Shown: positions 2,864-56,572 of the stretch, one piece after another
How positions within the stretch are numbered: the first letter of the stretch is position 1
Layout: every line of letters starts with the position of its first letter
NCBI GenBank assembly: GCA_964016885.1
Contig: OZ024743.1
Coordinates: 353,710,001-353,774,000 of the forward strand
Source of the DNA: Eledone cirrhosa
Lineage: Eukaryota
DNA length: 64,000 nucleotides
Direction of reading: 5' to 3'
Made by a program: the position numbers and the translations under genes
The notes under the pieces: generated by a model
Told to the model about the DNA's origin: nothing
What the model saw: only the letters and a program-made list of their open reading frames with translations
Databases searched by the model: none

Positions 2864-2917
2864 AGGGTTGACAGACCCAGCATATTTATCAATGTATATA
2901 TATATATATATATATAT

Positions 2918-4292
<1,375 letters not shown>

Positions 4293-4339
4293 TATATATA
4301 TATATATATATATGTATACACATATATATATATATATAC

Positions 4340-4436
<97 letters not shown>

Positions 4437-4604
4437 TTAAAATTTAGCTCCGACATAGATGTATACATACAAGTATTTGAATTTAGTACATCTCAATATA
4501 TTCGGTATATTTAATAAATAAACATTTGGAAAGCCTAGCTATGAATATTGAAAGGCTAACCGCTATCACCGCCTAGCGGATTCTAGCATAAGCAGCAAGG
4601 GACA

Positions 4605-4647
4605 ACTGTCTACGCGCATTTCAAGCTCTGGCTATCACCAGGACAGT
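4605..4647 (-). ncRNA. Type I hammerhead, core A6G variant
   Basis: actgtc CUGGUGA uagc-caga-gcuu GAA AUGCGCGU A gacagt. Confidence 0.65.
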
Positions 4648-4940
4648 GCTTCCCCTGTTTTCTGAGGGAACTTGAAATAGACGAAAATATATAGTTTTTG
4701 CACCTGTGTAGATGGGCTGATTAGCCTCAATTGCATATGGAGCTGTGTAAGTTGGCTCAATTTGAAAGTAGAATTAAAATTTATCCCGACATAGCTGAAT
4801 ACATACAAGTATGTGAATTTAGTATATCTAAATATATTCGGTATGTTTAATAAATAAACATTTGGAAAGCGTAGCTATGAATATTGAAAGCCTGACGGCT
4901 ATCGCGTCCTAGCGGATTTCAGTAGAAGCAGCGGGGGATA

Positions 4941-4983
4941 ACTGTCTATGCACATTTCAAGCTCTGGCTATCATCAGGACAGT
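4941..4983 (-). ncRNA. Type I hammerhead, intact core
   Basis: actgtc CUGAUGA uagc-caga-gcuu GAA AUGUGCAU A gacagt: 6-bp stem I and self-complementary stem III. Confidence 0.85.
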
Positions 4984-5345
4984 GCTTGCCCTGTTCTCCG
5001 CTGAAACTTGATACAAGCGAAAATATATAGTTTTTTTCCTGATGATTTATTTAAGAGACAATGTGAACGAGGAGACAAAATGTATATGAACATTTTGTAT
5101 CGTTGTTCGTATTGTCTGGTTGCTGTCATCTCGTCTTGTCTCATATTTTTCGGATAGCCATTGGTTTATTTCTCACTGGTCACTGCGGCGGATCTCTGGA
5201 TTCTATGTTCGCTACAACTGAAAGACAACTCGGAATGGATGGTTGAAAATGGAAACTATGTGTTTAACTCCTTGGATTTGTGTATTTATTACTTAACATT
5301 TTCATTTGACTTATTGCATTAGTTAATGCTATACAGTTACTACTA

Positions 5346-13461: not shown

Positions 13462-13933
13462 AAGAGATATATTAGATATGTCTCATATGAAATAATACAG
13501 CCAATTTTCCACGCAATACTTTTAGTTAGCACCCCAAACGCTTAATTAGGATATAATCACTTATTTCCTAATGTTTGTTGAGTGAGTTGGAATTTGGCCG
13601 GAGTATCGCTAAAAAGCTTTCTCCGATATTGTATTTATTTATATATATATATATAGTTAAAAGAATAGAGGTGTAACACACAAGTTATTATATATTGGTA
13701 AACGGAATAGAAAATGCTGACAAATTGTTCACAGTTGAAAAATGGTTTAATTAGGAATAAAAGAGTATTAGTGATTGTATGGGTTAGTATTCAGTTGTGG
13801 TTTTAAGTTTTTAAGTTTTTACCGGTTGCGCATTTCTAAATGCTTTTCAAAAATAATTTTGAGATAGAGTGTCCGTGCTGTTTGCTCTGATCTGATTAGT
13901 TTTGGGAATTCTACCTGTTTTTATGTTAAAAAA

Positions 13934-14959
13934 GTGGCTCCAGCGTTATTTTTGTGTTGCAAAAATGCTTGTGGTCAAAACAATTTTGACTTCACGATGG
14001 AATACAGCCATCAACAACTCCCCTTCCTCGACATCCTCATTAAGATCCATAACAAAAAAATAGAAACAGACATATACTACAAGCCCACAGACTCCAAGCA
14101 ATATCTCCCCTTCAACTCTTGCCACCCTAGACACGTTAAAATTAATATTCCCTACAACTTAGCCAAGAGAATCTGTACTATAGTCTCCAATAAAAACATC
14201 TGCTACTTAAGGCTACAAGAACTAAACGACACACTCATAGGCAGGGACTACCCTGCATCACTAATTGACAATGGAATCCAACGTGCCCTAAAACTCAGTA
14301 CCCAGGACCTTAGACACCCTAAAGTAAATCAACCAAAACTAAAAGCTCTTCCATACATCTCCACACACAACCCCCTCAACAATGAGACCTTTGACACCAT
14401 CCTCCAGAACATCCCTGTATTGAAAAAGGACCATAAAATGAACCAAATTCTACGAACACACGATATCATAAAGAGCAAAAGACAATCCAAGTCAATGAAA
14501 AACATCTTAACACATGCCAAAGTACTGCCAACCACAACAACGAAACCCACAGTAAAAAAATGCGATAGACCCAACTGTGGCATTTGCATCAACCTAATAG
14601 AGGGTTCGGAATTCTATTTCAAAGATGGACAACGTTTTATAGTAAAACACAATTTCACATGTGCATCGGAAAATCTAATATATGTATTAACTTGTTCAGG
14701 TTGTCGAGAACAATACATAGGCCAGACCAAAAACAGCCTCCGCCAACGCATCACTGTCCATAGATCCCAAATTAAAATACGGGAATACAGGAAAATACCA
14801 CTGAGTGAACACATTGATACCTGTGCCGCTCAAAATCATCCCAACTTCAGAATCTTTCCCCTCTACAAATTTAAAGATTATGCCACCCACACCCAGCGCA
14901 TCAGCAAGGAATCTTACTTCATTAACAAATACGGACCCCGTCTAAACACTTCTCCCTAA
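13934..14959 (+). CDS. PLE RT C-terminus/thumb plus GIY-YIG endonuclease (partial; the first about 19 codons are read from the inverted arm)
   Basis: FTME..LPFLD..TDIYYKPTD..YL..NSCHP; linker C-x4-C-x2-C (CDRPNCGIC) as in the Neptune clade; LIY.LTC.GC..QYIGQT..LRQR..H...SEH...E...LN. Confidence 0.9.
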   Translation: MAPALFLCCKNACGQNNFDFTMEYSHQQLPFLDILIKIHNKKIETDIYYKPTDSKQYLPFNSCHPRHVKINIPYNLAKRICTIVSNKNICYLRLQELNDTLIGRDYPASLIDNGIQRALKLSTQDLRHPKVNQPKLKALPYISTHNPLNNETFDTILQNIPVLKKDHKMNQILRTHDIIKSKRQSKSMKNILTHAKVLPTTTTKPTVKKCDRPNCGICINLIEGSEFYFKDGQRFIVKHNFTCASENLIYVLTCSGCREQYIGQTKNSLRQRITVHRSQIKIREYRKIPLSEHIDTCAAQNHPNFRIFPLYKFKDYATHTQRISKESYFINKYGPRLNTSP

Positions 14960-15074
14960 GACGAACCCACAACATACACACGTCAACATACATACCTACA
15001 TCAGCACACATCTCTACCCACATATAAACACAATGACACACGTAAACACACATGCTCTATGGTGCAATACAAAA

Positions 15075-15108
<34 letters not shown>

Positions 15109-15565
15109 TATGTGCATATATATGTATGTATATATGTATATATGTATATATATATATATATATGTAGTGAATATATGTATGTGTATATATATATAGTGAA
15201 TATCATTTCACACCTTTTATTGTTAAGATTTTTGATGTTCTATTAAGAGAACCGATTTTACTGAAAAAATCGAATAATGTACACCATTTTACCAGGGGGA
15301 AAAAAATACTGGTCCACCCACACACACTCACATATATACACAAACACATACACACGCGTACATAAACATACAAAGAGACTTATACACACACACACACACA
15401 CGCATTTCTCCGTATAAGACAAAAGCTGAAAAATATCTTTTGACCTTCGAATGACTCTGCTACACACACACACACACACACACACACACTTATCTTAATA
15501 GCCATTTGACACACATCGCTGCTGGCCATTGTCGCAGCATCGAACACCTTATTACTACTACTACT

Positions 15566-15675
<110 letters not shown>

Positions 15676-15988
15676 TTGTTGTGAAAGAGTCATTTCTCAA
15701 TCTTGGCGCAAAACCAATTTTTATCCACATGACCTCTACCGACCAATCAAAATTGTTTTGACCAAGAATTTTTGCTGGAGCCACTTTTTTAACATAAAAA
15801 CAGTCTTGGCGCAAAATCAACTTTTTACATTCACATGACCTCTACCGACCAATCAAAATTGTTTTGACCACAAGCATTTTTGCAACACAAAAATAACGCT
15901 GGAGCCACTTTTTTAACATAAAAACAGGTAGAATTCCCAAAACTAATCAGATCAGAGCAAACAGCACGGACACTCTATCTCAAAATTA

Positions 15989-16025
15989 TTTTTGAAAAGC
16001 ATTTAGAAATGCGCAACCGGTAAAA
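15989..16025 (+). ncRNA. Variant hammerhead-like motif (U3-A8, GCAA)
   Basis: Identical to 4095-4131; antisense copy at 13817-13853. Confidence 0.5.
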
Positions 16026-16143
16026 ACTTAAAAACTTAAAACCACAACTGAATACTAACCCATACAATCACTAATACTCTTTTATTCCTAATTAAACCAT
16101 TTTTCAACTGTGAACAATTTGTCAGCATTTTCTATTCCGTTTA

Positions 16144-16242
<99 letters not shown>

Positions 16243-23028: not shown

Positions 23029-24532
<1,504 letters not shown>

Positions 24533-44986: not shown

Positions 44987-45852
44987 TTATCTTCTACCAT
45001 GAATCTGTGTCTTTGTGCTTATGTATATTTGTGTTTTTTCGTGCCTTGTTCCCGATGTTTCCCTTTCAGATATGTGTGTATTTCCCATCCTCTGTTATTT
45101 CTTTTGCATCCTATTTAGTTTAACGAATATATTTGGACTAAATCATTAATTTATCATATAGTCGCAAGATATCTTGGATGTCTTTTCGCCTCGTTTTCTG
45201 TATTGTTTCAAATTCCTGACAGCGCCTAACACATTTTATTTTTTCCGCTGTTGTGGAGTTCCGGAATTCTGGTTACTACTCTTACCACAAAGATCCGACT
45301 GAATGTTCCAGTTTGAGCAGTCAGTGACAGGAATTGTTTGTTTTGTTTCCGTATTTTCCATATTTAATTGGATTAACAACAGTTAATTAATCTCTCATAG
45401 ATCTGTTCTGATCTGTTTCTGTAATTTTGTTATTATTATCTAGTCTCACAAAATACCGTATCCAGATATTTTGTCCGGGGCCAATTCTCTTTCATTCTTT
45501 CGAGTGCCTCTACCTACAACTATGTCTTGTAATGTCGCTTGATCGACCTGCAAGCGTCTCTGACTCTGCGCTGAGAGGCTTTACTTTTGTTTTGATAGTG
45601 CTATTTCTCTTTGTCGATTTTGTGTTATTCTTGTCCAATGGACTGCGTGATTGTCTTATCATACAGCTTTACGTTGTATTTACGCCAGTAAATTGTTTCA
45701 TTACGTGTCACTGATATTTTCCATTTAAGCATATGTGTGTGTGTTCAGCCTCTGTCGTTTGTTTGTTTCACCAACGACTATATTTTGAGTGTATGATACT
45801 GTTTATTTTCATTTTATCCCGTTTGATTTTGATTGTATATATATATATATAT

Positions 45853-47069
45853 GGATTTTCTTTTTCGGGTGAATTTTACCAGCAGGTCTCTGGGGTAGCG
45901 ATGGGAACCAGAATGGGTCTAAACTATGCTAACTTGTTTGTTGGCTACGTCGAAGCCCAGATATTCTCCCAGTACGCTGGACCGACTCCTGAGCTATACG
46001 GTCGTTATATCGACGACTGTATCGGCGTCACCTCTCTATCACGAGAACAGCTCGACTGTTTTCTTTCTTTTGTCCTATCTTTCCATCCTGCTCTCAATTT
46101 CACCGCCTCCGTCTCCGATTCTTCTGTCGCTTTTCTAGATATCTCTCTATCTATTAATCACTCTCACCACACTCTCTACTTCCATCTACATTAAACCAAC
46201 AGACTCCCAATCTTATCTCGACTTCACCTCTTCCCATCCAACCCACACCAAACACTCCATAGCCTATTCCCAATTCCTCCGTCTTCGTCGACTCTGTAGC
46301 CAGGACAACGATTTCGAAACCTATTCCCTTCGCATGGCTTCTTGCTTCATCCAGCGTGGATATCCCCCCACCTTGATCCAAGCTGCTCTCACCCGCGCAC
46401 GTGAAACAGACCACACCACACCTATCTCACCTCACCCCGCCCTCCCAACACCAGTGTTCCTTTCCCTCTCACCTACCATCCCATCACCCTACCACTCCGG
46501 CGACATATCCTCCGTTCCTTCCGTATCCTCTCTTCTGACCCCGCCACTTCTAGCTGTTTTCCAAACCCACCCATTACTGCTTTTAAGCGCGCCCGAAACC
46601 TCCGCGACCTCCTGGTTCGGAGTTCTTTTCCGTTCTCTCCCAGGACTCCACCCGGCTCTCATCCTTGTTCCCGTTCCCGCTGCAACACTTGTCCCTTTAT
46701 TTCCACCCTCACCACTCTTACAGGCCCTAACGGGTCTTTCCGTATCCGACATTCCTTCACCTGCACATCCACCCACGTTGTCTATGCCCTCCGGTGTTCC
46801 CTTTTACGGGTCTTTATATGTCGGACAAACGGGACGCCGTATGGCGGACCGTTTTGCCGAACATTTGAGGGACATACGACTCGGTTTGGATACTCCTGAC
46901 GACCCCGCCCGTCCCCTCAATTTATTTTATTTCGCATTATTTCTTCTGATGAAGGACTAGCGTCCGAAACGTTAAGACCTTCTTCCTGCTGTATCAAGCG
47001 TTAACCTAATATATACCTTCCATATACTGTACCGATTGTGTTGTTATTTCTGTTTACCTTTTACATGCA
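45853..47069 (+). mobile_element. Second Neptune-type PLE, 5'-truncated and frameshifted, with 3' hammerhead, in (TA)n
   Basis: FYQQVSGVAMG, RYIDD, FLDI, KPTDSQSYL, C-x4-C-x2-C linker, LYVGQTGRRMADRFAEH. Confidence 0.9.
46942..46977 (+). ncRNA. Minimal type I hammerhead of PLE
   Basis: tctt CUGAUGA a ggac-tagc-gtcc GAA ACGU U aaga (palindromic stem III). Confidence 0.85.
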
Positions 47070-47089
47070 TATATATATATATATTATAT

Positions 47090-47358
47090 ATCCAGGGAGT
47101 GTAACGTGAAGTTACTGTAGGTTCACCCAGGTGAGCACTCGATGTTTAGGTTCAGGTCAGTGGCGAGGTGTAGAGCTAGACAGAGTGTAATATAATAATA
47201 CAACGACGATTTGTTAGGACTTCATTACTGCTGGGTCCGACGAGCTTTTGATTCCAAAGTTGGGCCAGATCGATACAGATCGAACCTTGAGCTGATCAAT
47301 AACGAACGCGCGTCACCAATCAATAAACGTAATGAAGGCTTAACAAATCGTCCTTGTA
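47090..47358 (+). mobile_element. Fold-back HHR mini-element (same family as 56060-56448)
   Basis: Antisense tail 47090-47228; HHR 47233-47318 ggt CCGACGA ... GA ACGCGCGU C acc (one core A lost). Confidence 0.7.
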
Positions 47359-49551: not shown

Positions 49552-50290
49552 AATATTGTCATACTTTAGGAGGGCCATGTCGCCAATAAGAAACACACAC
49601 ACCAGTTGCTTTCACTCCAATTTATTATAAATTAAATTTATAAATTTAAGAATTTATAAATTTCCGGTTGATTGGTTCCACAACCTGACGGTTGTTCATA
49701 TATTGTCAAAGTTCTTTCGTCACACATTCTGTGACCTCTTCAGTGGCTGGGAATTCTTCTCTTTGTTTTGTGCCTCTCCTTTGTTCTGTCCTACGCCATC
49801 ATTATTTTTAACTTTATCATTATTTTCCCTCTATGTTTCTTTCTCTCTACCTTTATTTCTCCTTTAACCCCTTTTCTCTCCTCTTCCTATCCTCCTTTCT
49901 CTATGTCTTTTTCTCTATGTCTTTTTCTCTGTCTTTTTCTCTATGTCTTTTTCTCTCTCTATATTTCTCTCTGTTTTCCTTTCTCCTTTTTCTTTTTCTT
50001 TTTCTTTTTCCATTTTTCCTTCTTTCGTTTATCTATCTCTATTTCTCTCTCTATCTTTATTAGTAATATTATTAATGATGCTGCAATTTGACTTGAATTT
50101 ATAAATCCAACGGATATCCTAATTGTCTCTGATGATCTGATTAAGCTAACCTCGTATTTAAAATTGAGTGGCATTGCTTCTAGTGTTCAGCAATTTTTAG
50201 ACAACTTAATCAGTGAAATAATTGTTAGACTGTAAATGAATCGCTTTTTTGTACTGTTGACCATGTTATTCTTCACTTTTTCAATTTTAT
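49552..50290 (-). mobile_element. PLE 3' remnant with hammerhead at 49705-49747
   Basis: gcca CUGAAGA g gtcac-agaatgt-gtgac GAA AGAACU U tgac; upstream degenerate ITWS...LLNTRS EN-like remnant. Confidence 0.6.
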
Positions 50291-50507: not shown

Positions 50508-50585
<78 letters not shown>

Positions 50586-50589
<4 letters not shown>

Positions 50590-51817
50590 GGAAAAAATGA
50601 AACGAAATTTCATTTCCCACTCTTAGTACGGCTGTTACTTAAATATAGGTATGTACACGTACATACATATATGTATACAGACGTACAGTAGTATGTACAT
50701 ATATATACATACATGCACACATATATATATGTACGTATGGATTCACCGAACATTTATTATAATGCTCGGTGTGCTTGTAAACATACATCCCGTATTAAGC
50801 CGCAGTGTCCAGCAACCATCATTGCTCGTTTGTTCAAGCACACCGAGCATTATAATAAATGTTCGGTGAATCCATACGCACATATATATATATATATGTG
50901 TGCATGTATGTATATATATGTATATACTACTGTACGTCTGTATACATATATGTATGTACGTGTACATACTTATATTTAAGTAATAGCCGTACTAAGAATG
51001 GGAAAGAATGAAATTTCGTTTCATTTTTTCCGTTCATCGGTTTCGGTGCACCCGGCCGATTAACCCACTCGATATGCAAATTGGGATACTCAGCCGTTAA
51101 TATGCATAAGGTAAGTATATACGTTCAACAATCTGGCAGGAAGGTATACGTTGCTGACGATAGCTAATAAGCTTGAAACTAGTACAGCGTTCCTTTGTCA
51201 GTGTTGAACAAACGAGCAACGATGGTTGCTGGACACTACGGCTTAATACGGGATGTTTGTTTACAAGCACACCGAGCATTATAATAAATGTTCGGTGAAT
51301 CCATACGTACATATATATATATATGTGCATGTATGTATATATATGTACATACTACTGTACGTCTGTATACATATATGTATGTACGTGTACATACTTATAT
51401 TTAAGTAACAGCCGTACTAAGAGTGGGAAATTAAATTTCATTTCATTTTTTGCGTTTATCGTTTTCGGTGCACCCGGCCGATTAACCCACTCGATATGCA
51501 AATTGGGCTACTCAGCCGTTATTATGCATAAGGTAAGTATATACGTTCAACAATCTGGCAGGAAGGTATACATTGCTGACGATAGCTAATAAGCTTGAAA
51601 CTAGTACAGCGTTCCTTTGTCAGTGTTGAACAAACGAGCAACGATGGTTGCTGGACACTACGGCTTAATACGGGATGTTTGTTTACAAGCACACCGAGCA
51701 TTATAATAAATGTTCGGTGAATCCATACGTACATATATATATATATGTGTGCATGTATGTATATATATGTACATACTACTGTACGTCTGTATACATATAT
51801 GTATGTACGTGTACATA

Positions 51818-51820
<3 letters not shown>
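50586..51820 (+). mobile_element. 422-nt HHR repeat family, locus B: inverted 5' arm plus about 2.3 head-to-tail units
   Basis: Antisense arm 50586-50837; HHRs 51148-51190 and 51570-51612 (CUGACGA uagc..gcuu GAA ACUAGU A cagcg); cleavage sites 51184 and 51606. Confidence 0.9.
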
Positions 51821-51893
<73 letters not shown>

Positions 51894-55269: not shown

Positions 55270-55321
55270 AGTTTTAAATAAACCTGAATCAATTGAATAT
55301 GGCCTCCGATCTTTTATTAAT

Positions 55322-56035
55322 ATATACTTTCAAAAGTTCAATCGACTGACAGGAAGGTATACGGTGCTGATGACAGCTAATAAGCTAGAAACTAGTTCAT
55401 CGTTCCTTTGTCAATGTTGAACAAAAGGGCAACGATGGTTGCCGAACACTGTACGGCTTAATTCGGGCTGTTTGTTTATAAACAAACCGAACATTATAAT
55501 AAATGTTCGGTAAACCCATACGTACATATATATATGTGTGCATGTATGTATATACATACTACTGTACGTCTGTATACATATATGTATGTACGTATTCATA
55601 CTTATATTTAAGTAACAGCCGTACTAAGAGTGAGAAATGAAATTTCGTTTCATTTTTTCCATTTATCGTTTTCGGTGCGCCCGGCCGACTAACTCTCTCG
55701 ATATGCAAATTAGGCTGCTCAGCCGTTAATATGCATAAGGAAAGCATGTACTTTCAAACGTTCAATCGACTGACAGGAAGGTATACGGTGCTGATGATAG
55801 CTAATAAGCTAGAAACTAGTTCATCATTCCTTTGTCAGTGTTGAACAAAAGGGCAACGATGGTTGCCGAACACTGTACGGTTTAATTCAGGGTATTTGTT
55901 TACAAACAAACCGAACATTATAATAAATGTTCGGTAATCCCATACGTACATATATATATATATATGTGCATGTATGTATGTATATACATACTACTCTACG
56001 TCTGTATACATATATGTATGTACGTATACATACTT
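55322..56035 (+). mobile_element. 422-nt HHR repeat family, locus C: about 1.7 head-to-tail units (424-nt spacing)
   Basis: HHRs 55361-55403 and 55786-55825 (ggtg CUGAUGA uagc-uaauaa-gcua GAA ACUAGU U catc); cleavage sites 55397 and 55821. Confidence 0.9.
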
Positions 56036-56059
56036 ATATATATATATATATATATATAT

Positions 56060-56572
<513 letters not shown>

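Follow-up and report, generated by a model that had tools for sequence, protein, structure and literature searches.

Two predicted hammerhead ribozymes lie in tandem in the 64-kb window analysed here (the whole stretch of DNA, within which all positions are counted unless a contig is named), and they differ from those of another locus of the same family, locus B, at positions where the ribozyme fold appears to survive. The initial annotation placed these changes at tolerant or pairing-preserving positions and read them as a suggestion of selection on structure in a distinct subfamily. The question raised by this locus is therefore whether such selection exists and, if so, whether it acts on the inserted copy or elsewhere. 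We think it probable that the locus is a decaying copy of a non-LTR retrozyme subfamily, likely written into (TA)n by a Penelope-like retrotransposon, whose RNA is predicted to cut itself.

Architecture of the locus and class of its ribozymes

Unit BLAST in the window delimits an insertion at 55321-56035 (plus strand), made of about 1.7 tandem units of a non-coding 424-nt repeat. The insertion is 5'-truncated and single-armed; the same search found no inverted partner arm upstream in the window, and the locus has no open frame of at least 130 aa. Its 3' end is the commonest end point of the family, a short end that runs into a (TA)n microsatellite at 56030-56061, the likely target site. The 424-nt spacing of the two hammerheads was reproduced, with cores starting at 55367 and 55791 and H17 falling at 55397 and 55821.

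The first hammerhead (55362-55402, plus strand) has every element of core, stems and palindrome. Its stem I pairs 55362-66 with 55398-402, CUGAUGA occupies 55367-73, and stem II (55374-87) consists of 4 bp with a C·A closing position and an AAUA loop; GAAA lies at 55388-91, the palindrome ACUAGU at 55391-96, and H17 is the U at 55397. Its 31-nt core is the commonest form in the subfamily, called C below. From the sequence and from pair counts over 13 copies, stem I is predicted to extend further (55346-55357 with 55405-55414, around an internal loop UAUA/UU), giving a motif of 55346-55414 on the plus strand. Folded alone as a single strand this motif is weak (z -1.4), and its unconstrained minimum free energy (MFE) structure did not recover the hammerhead fold. 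The second hammerhead (55786-55826, plus strand) has an intact core, a stem II that closes U-A at 55798/55811, as was initially annotated, and a U at 55821 as H17; in its stem I, cggtg/catca, the outer pair is broken by a C·A at 55786/55826.

Both units follow the order stem I 5' arm, CUGAUGA, stem II, GAAA, CUAGU, U, stem I 3' arm, and both hold the core CUGANGA and GAA, the A15.1-U16.1 pair and an NUH triplet in this type I order. Stem I has 5 bp (4 in unit 2) and stem II 4 bp, while helix III has 2 bp with a 2-nt loop in the monomer or 6 bp in a dimer; ACUAGU is palindromic, and the dimeric self-duplex amounts to -4.8 kcal/mol. The 10.1-11.1 pair that closes stem II is usually G-C in hammerheads. 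Here the paired closing is lacking: the position is C·A in 54 of the 61 C copies and U·U in all 20 copies of subfamily D (both among the matches listed), and G-C closing is found only in the 466/467-nt families. Rfam hammerhead models gave no match at the gathering threshold in the whole window. Nevertheless, by core and stems both units are type I hammerheads, for which cleavage is predicted from the sequence. The palindromic helix III arrangement is described in part of PMC4209133 for metazoan hammerheads that cut as dimers, and GUU is an NUH site, although one that the relevant part of PMC3138052 does not place among the fastest cleavage triplets. In the part of Li et al. 2026 (10.64898/2026.07.22.740005) that bears on this point, one of nine predicted Xenopus dimers was cut in vitro.

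The 424-nt monomer between the two predicted cut sites (55398-55821, plus strand) has 37% GC and is strongly self-paired, with an MFE of -140 kcal/mol (z -7.6) that was equalled by none of 100 shuffles; a 335-nt stretch of it without the TA block has z -4.8. A TA-rich inverted repeat at 55518-55596 (plus strand), predicted to form a long hairpin, is also recognisable in the 467-nt sister family. At 55636-55666 (plus strand) lie a hairpin, GAAATGAAA/TTTCGTTTC, and a second, long 3' end point at about 55666, which is read through at this locus; loose ends at 55666 appear in run X1. The octamer ATGCAAAT at 55703-55710 (plus strand), which we take to be the octamer motif, stands 88 nt upstream of the unit 2 core and is retained by the 467-nt family (62% identical), where it lies 100 nt ahead of the core. 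It is a candidate internal promoter element; an snRNA-type promoter is described for newt satellite 2 in part of PMC2220036.

Units 1 and 2 are 94.7% identical (268/283), as against 99.3% for the units of locus B, and hence the present insertion is older than B. It should also be noted that 56060-56345, directly after the locus, is a near-perfect 285-bp palindrome flanked by TA, MITE-like and unrelated to the unit, with a diverged relative at 47233-47357.

The fold between subfamilies and within inserted copies

Compared with locus B (51154, 422-nt spacing), unit 1 indeed carries U at N7 where B has C, a GUU triplet where B has GUA, and a stem I of cggtg/catcg where B has cgttg/cagcg, so that G·U replaces U·G. 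U7, GUU and the stem I swap turn out to be genome-wide marks of the subfamily and not peculiarities of 55321-56035. The swap need not go with U7/GUU: a copy at 24154 in the window has cggtg/catcg together with C7 and GUA. That the subfamily is distinct was confirmed in the 3.0 Gb of genome scanned, where the 31-nt core of unit 1 has 831 exact matches and 1,655 within one mismatch. In a FastTree of 80 sampled copies, the C type forms a star-like clade of 44 rows (support 0.81), which exclude the two units of 55321-56035 and include a few truncated or chimeric rows. C copies are on average 96-97% identical to their majority sequence.

The wider pattern CTGANGA-N14-GAAACTAGTH has 40,100 matches in the genome versus 2 for the reversed control; hammerhead motifs of this clan are far above chance. 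Related types in the loci read are A, B, D, a ~484-nt type and the 466/467-nt types at 57-68% identity. A query for other kinds of stem II, with position two set to G or C, gave one match. Contigs of runs X1, X4 and X5 also contain the unit (scored for presence only), including a ~85%-identical relative in a second organism. In the window, a third family locus with three arms lies at 23063-24454 and an inverted arm of the family at 50584-50837; the outer ends of 23063-24454 and 50584-51827 are one short and one long each, following the family rule described below. At G000:C1:5738326-5752444, over 30 units of 466 nt stand in an array; their stem II shows full compensation and closes G-C. On the minus strand of the window, 4436-5030 is an unrelated-looking tandem pair of ~340-nt units with a type I hammerhead (core at 4977, U·U stem II closing, 3-bp helix III), the core of the other unit bearing an A-to-G change at A6. 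A hammerhead-like motif with CTGAAGA and a GTCAC/GTGAC stem II, at 49743 (minus strand) and also in L181 and L183, belongs to a repeat found in several loci.

Six of the 41 ribozyme positions differ between B and C, and core, stems and palindrome are all kept. When six substitutions were placed at random, the fold was kept in 694 of 200,000 trials, and in 1,031 when the rule was relaxed (0.35-0.5%); this test was devised post hoc, with no constraint on the closing pair. The claim that the changes keep the fold thus stands for all six B-to-C changes and fails in unit 2, where C·A breaks the outer stem I pair. Pair counts and a permutation test were also applied to 13 natural copies, hand-chosen to represent the types: 94.5% of cells pair, versus 33-49% in slid controls, and both partners have changed in 9 of 21 pairs, with as many in 4 of 500 shuffles. 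Most of these double changes come from the one split between the 466/467-nt families and the rest. The middle stem I pair is G·U, A-U, U·G or U-A across the 13 copies. In the lineages that went on spreading, selection has likely maintained the ribozyme fold.

Chance and ascertainment without any selection on the fold would be an extremely unlikely source of this pattern. Such an explanation can draw on the fact that only six changes separate B and C, that the test was designed after these had been seen and treated the closing pair as free, and that the distant 466/467-nt families were found by a pattern requiring the core. B, C and D, however, were found by whole-unit or flank similarity and not by core, and their majority cores are all intact; moreover, the stem II of the 466/467-nt families has been rewritten with full compensation, which the search pattern did not demand.

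A different picture emerges for copies after insertion. Copies were anchored on a 30-mer downstream of the ribozyme, with 606 genome matches; among the first 100 matches listed, 92 copies were read, all on contig C1, of which 61 are C, 20 are D and 11 were dropped as truncated inside the ribozyme. Only non-CpG changes were counted, and sites varying in more than 15% of copies were set aside. For the C copies among the matches listed, 15 of 671 core positions (2.2%) and 252 of 9,065 flank positions (2.8%) have changed (P=0.46), while core plus stems give 59 of 1,763 (P=0.21); the 20 D copies among the matches listed show the same neutral result. At the level of copies, the core is no slower than its flanks, an outcome named beforehand as speaking against selection on structure. 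The substitution spectrum of 135 C arms is strand-symmetric (A>G 103 versus T>C 87). Variants common to two arms or units avoid the core (0/35, of low power with ~1.7 expected), and some of them break stems. Once inserted, copies mutate without regard to the ribozyme.

The U-A closure of unit 2 has to be judged against the same background. As a sign of selection it does not hold, since its 20 genome-wide occurrences compare with 37 of C3U and 15 of G12A, both core-breaking changes; unit 1 (C·A) and B (U·U) each have a mismatch at the closing position of stem II, with U-A as the exception. That U-A closure is always a private mutation was also rejected, given linked markers in 13 of 20 copies: a linked A>G at +124 is present in 13/20 U-A copies versus 39/127 copies sampled generally, and 8/20 U-A copies have a linked change at -23. 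Hence, a minor lineage with U-A lies between ancestral U·U and C·A. Neither of its markers is present in unit 2, and the neighbouring unit 1 has C, so the U-A seen here probably arose by a subsequent mutation. In the lineage that did spread, the stem II closing position is unpaired.

We conclude that 55321-56035 is a neutrally ageing copy, and that selection on the fold operates at the stage of replication rather than on this insertion. The proposal of selection on structure is accordingly retained between subfamilies, on the six-change and pairing tests, and abandoned for this and other inserted copies. It would be very unlikely for the locus itself to be under selection as a functioning pair of ribozymes, be it in a source locus or in a circular RNA gene that is useful to the host. 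Two intact 11-nt cores in tandem are found in only 8 of 103 sampled C loci (short loci can miss the second unit), and unit 1 departs from the majority sequence of the subfamily at just 3 sites, as a selected locus might; yet 46 of the 61 C copies among the matches listed (75%) keep an intact core by chance, so that two intact cores are expected about half the time. Furthermore, the units are 5.3% different with no common derived change, unit 2 has 13 differences including its broken stem I pair, and the octamer upstream of unit 1 has been lost by truncation.

Copy ends, RNA stage and a proposed life cycle

Among the matches listed, 41 of the 92 copies end 204-214 nt past the cut site, as 55321-56035 does, and 28 end at 261-270 nt. 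These two-point ends run into (AT)n in 63 of 69 cases (short end 38/41, likewise among the matches listed), and target-site duplications are masked because the copies end in (TA)n. Forty two-armed loci were seen, some of them fetched as inverted pairs; 18 have an end elsewhere or cut by the locus edge, and where both ends lie at the two points, 21 of 22 loci pair a short with a long end (P ~3e-6). At the other side, 85 of the 92 copies among the matches listed continue 5' past the cut site by 16 nt or more, and hence their templates were mostly circles or uncut multimers. The 5' ends that fall within 10 nt of the cut site (6/60 versus 2.4 expected, P 0.04-0.09) form a weak excess that is not used as support.

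Truncation at the 5' end, an inverted partner, a tail at one end and a (TA)n bias are described for Penelope-like elements in part of 10.1101/2021.04.23.441226. At the family level, the unit has the truncation, inverted partner, one-ended tail and microsatellite target of a non-autonomous Penelope-like element; 55321-56035 alone has the truncation and the short end, without a partner arm. The window itself contains a two-armed Penelope-like insertion with a GIY-YIG match at 13636-16150, and another at 2882-4312. The former holds an RT C-terminus, a CxxxxCxxC linker and GIY-YIG, and is Neptune-like by eye; its family has many 784-aa open frames and copies 97-98% identical, and is very young. 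In this family, short-plus-long ends 39 nt apart are found in 12 of 12 simple two-armed loci, with three complex loci set aside. Penelope-like candidates in the genome number 34,098, of which 128 were scored.

The same family was tried as the parent of the unit and rejected, as no sequence is shared in 39 loci; it therefore serves as a model of the mechanism and not as an identified partner. Matches to the unit in the loci of this family are neighbouring repeat copies or fragments of up to 36 nt, and no ordinary hammerhead was found at the ends of the 13636-16150 family. Separately, 45715-46990 contains a broken Penelope-like frame (by eye, with no Pfam match); behind it, at 46946, stands a minimal hammerhead whose palindrome is ACGU.

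Two copies bear on the RNA stage. L072 (G000:C1:53.73 Mb) has 13 A>G changes versus 1 T>C on the ribozyme strand, and L063 (G000:C1:21.38 Mb) has seven A>G changes common to both arms; such clusters are, we assume, typical of ADAR editing. Read as editing scars, they show a past RNA stage, and the changes common to both L063 arms point to both having been copied from one edited molecule or source. In L072, A15.1 itself was changed to G and the copy was still inserted. The sense strand showed no genome-wide excess of A-to-G changes (P=0.51), and editing is confined to a few copies.

In the life cycle that we propose, tandem source loci would give rise to multimeric transcripts, perhaps through an internal promoter. 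Two ribozymes would pair through the ACUAGU palindrome, cut as a double hammerhead and release 424-nt monomers, which a host ligase may close into circles. Copying would be primed at two fixed AU-rich sites 56 nt apart, whose footprint is seen in the copy ends and whose enzyme is presumed. It would start from one side of a (TA)n break or from both, and in most copies has run across the cut site on a circular template or an uncut multimer. Inserted copies, as shown above, mutate regardless of the ribozyme, and only source lineages that kept the fold would have founded new subfamilies, which would account for subfamily differences at tolerant positions. The tandem loci could equally be explained by the copying of a linear multimer, the circle being only proposed.

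The last point is taken further if the unit is seen as a Penelope pseudo-LTR that has become an orphan and is copied from uncut, linear multimers of RNA alone, with rare cutting, no circle and tandem units derived from tandem source loci or local duplication. We regard this as quite unlikely. Paired ends with a tail, 5' inversion and (TA)n are all ordinary Penelope features in the relevant part of Craig et al., most C copies hold one ribozyme per arm, and a pLTR origin with local tandem amplification is proposed in part of Li et al. 2026; in addition, the available accounts describe PLE hammerheads as very slow in vitro. A fold conserved across families that are 57-68% identical nevertheless argues that the fold does something, and sister families stand in long arrays (more than 30 units at C1:5.74 Mb), and the weak excess of 5' ends near the cut site is a hint that some templates had been cut.

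It is also conceivable, though unlikely, that ribozyme speed was selected at the RNA stage, and that the C burst followed the slower GUU and the lost stem II closing pair, with intact circles copied by the Penelope enzyme. The closing pair would then have gone from U·U through the small U-A lineage to C·A, and long-lived circles would have let the enzyme copy one edited RNA from both sides of a break. If this were true, the series of subfamilies in the genome would document how the ribozyme was tuned in nature.

Comparison with known systems

The decaying-copy reading, which we prefer, separates selection on the replicating lineage, which is real, from function of the inserted copy, which is unsupported. 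The locus itself adds little beyond being one of few two-ribozyme C copies, whereas the family provides a ready set of natural variants for cleavage assays.

Among canonical metazoan type I hammerheads, as set out in parts of PMC4209133 and PMC6765202, helix II has 4 bp and helix III 1-2 bp with a small palindromic loop, as here, and the dimeric cleavage model is likewise proposed here. With its extended stem I and internal loop, the unit belongs to this canonical type and not to the minimal type of PLEs described in the same parts; unlike PLE hammerheads, it has no attached RT-endonuclease frame in any locus read. With EN+ Penelope-like elements of the Neptune and Naiad clades, the unit shares the 5' truncation, inverted partner, one-ended tail and (TA)n bias given in part of 10.1101/2021.04.23.441226. 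Unlike them, it is without protein, has a tail of 56 nt versus 30-40, and shows no sequence link to the one autonomous family compared.

The closest likeness is to metazoan non-LTR retrozymes (coral, mussel, axolotl, newt satellite 2). A literature search found no octopus retrozyme paper, although supplements may list cephalopod motifs. Metazoan retrozymes are known by expression, circles and cleavage, the Eledone unit by its genomic sequence. In the parts of PMC7229834 and 10.64898/2026.07.22.740005 that describe them, fixed paired 3' ends in (TA)n are not among the features given, and the mismatched closing of stem II (C·A or U·U) and the single ribozyme per arm in most C copies also set the present unit apart. 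The same sources describe features that are also found here: one type I hammerhead per 150-450-nt tandem unit, GC below 50%, non-coding sequence, strong self-pairing, thousands of copies, a short helix III expected to need dimers, and a PLE as the proposed mobiliser. The sequence-level features that define a non-LTR retrozyme are present, with 424-nt spacing and both cores complete. Taken together, 55321-56035 is an ordinary member of the known retrozyme class, and the paired ends and shared editing scars of its family lend indirect genomic support to the proposed Penelope-driven retrozyme cycle.
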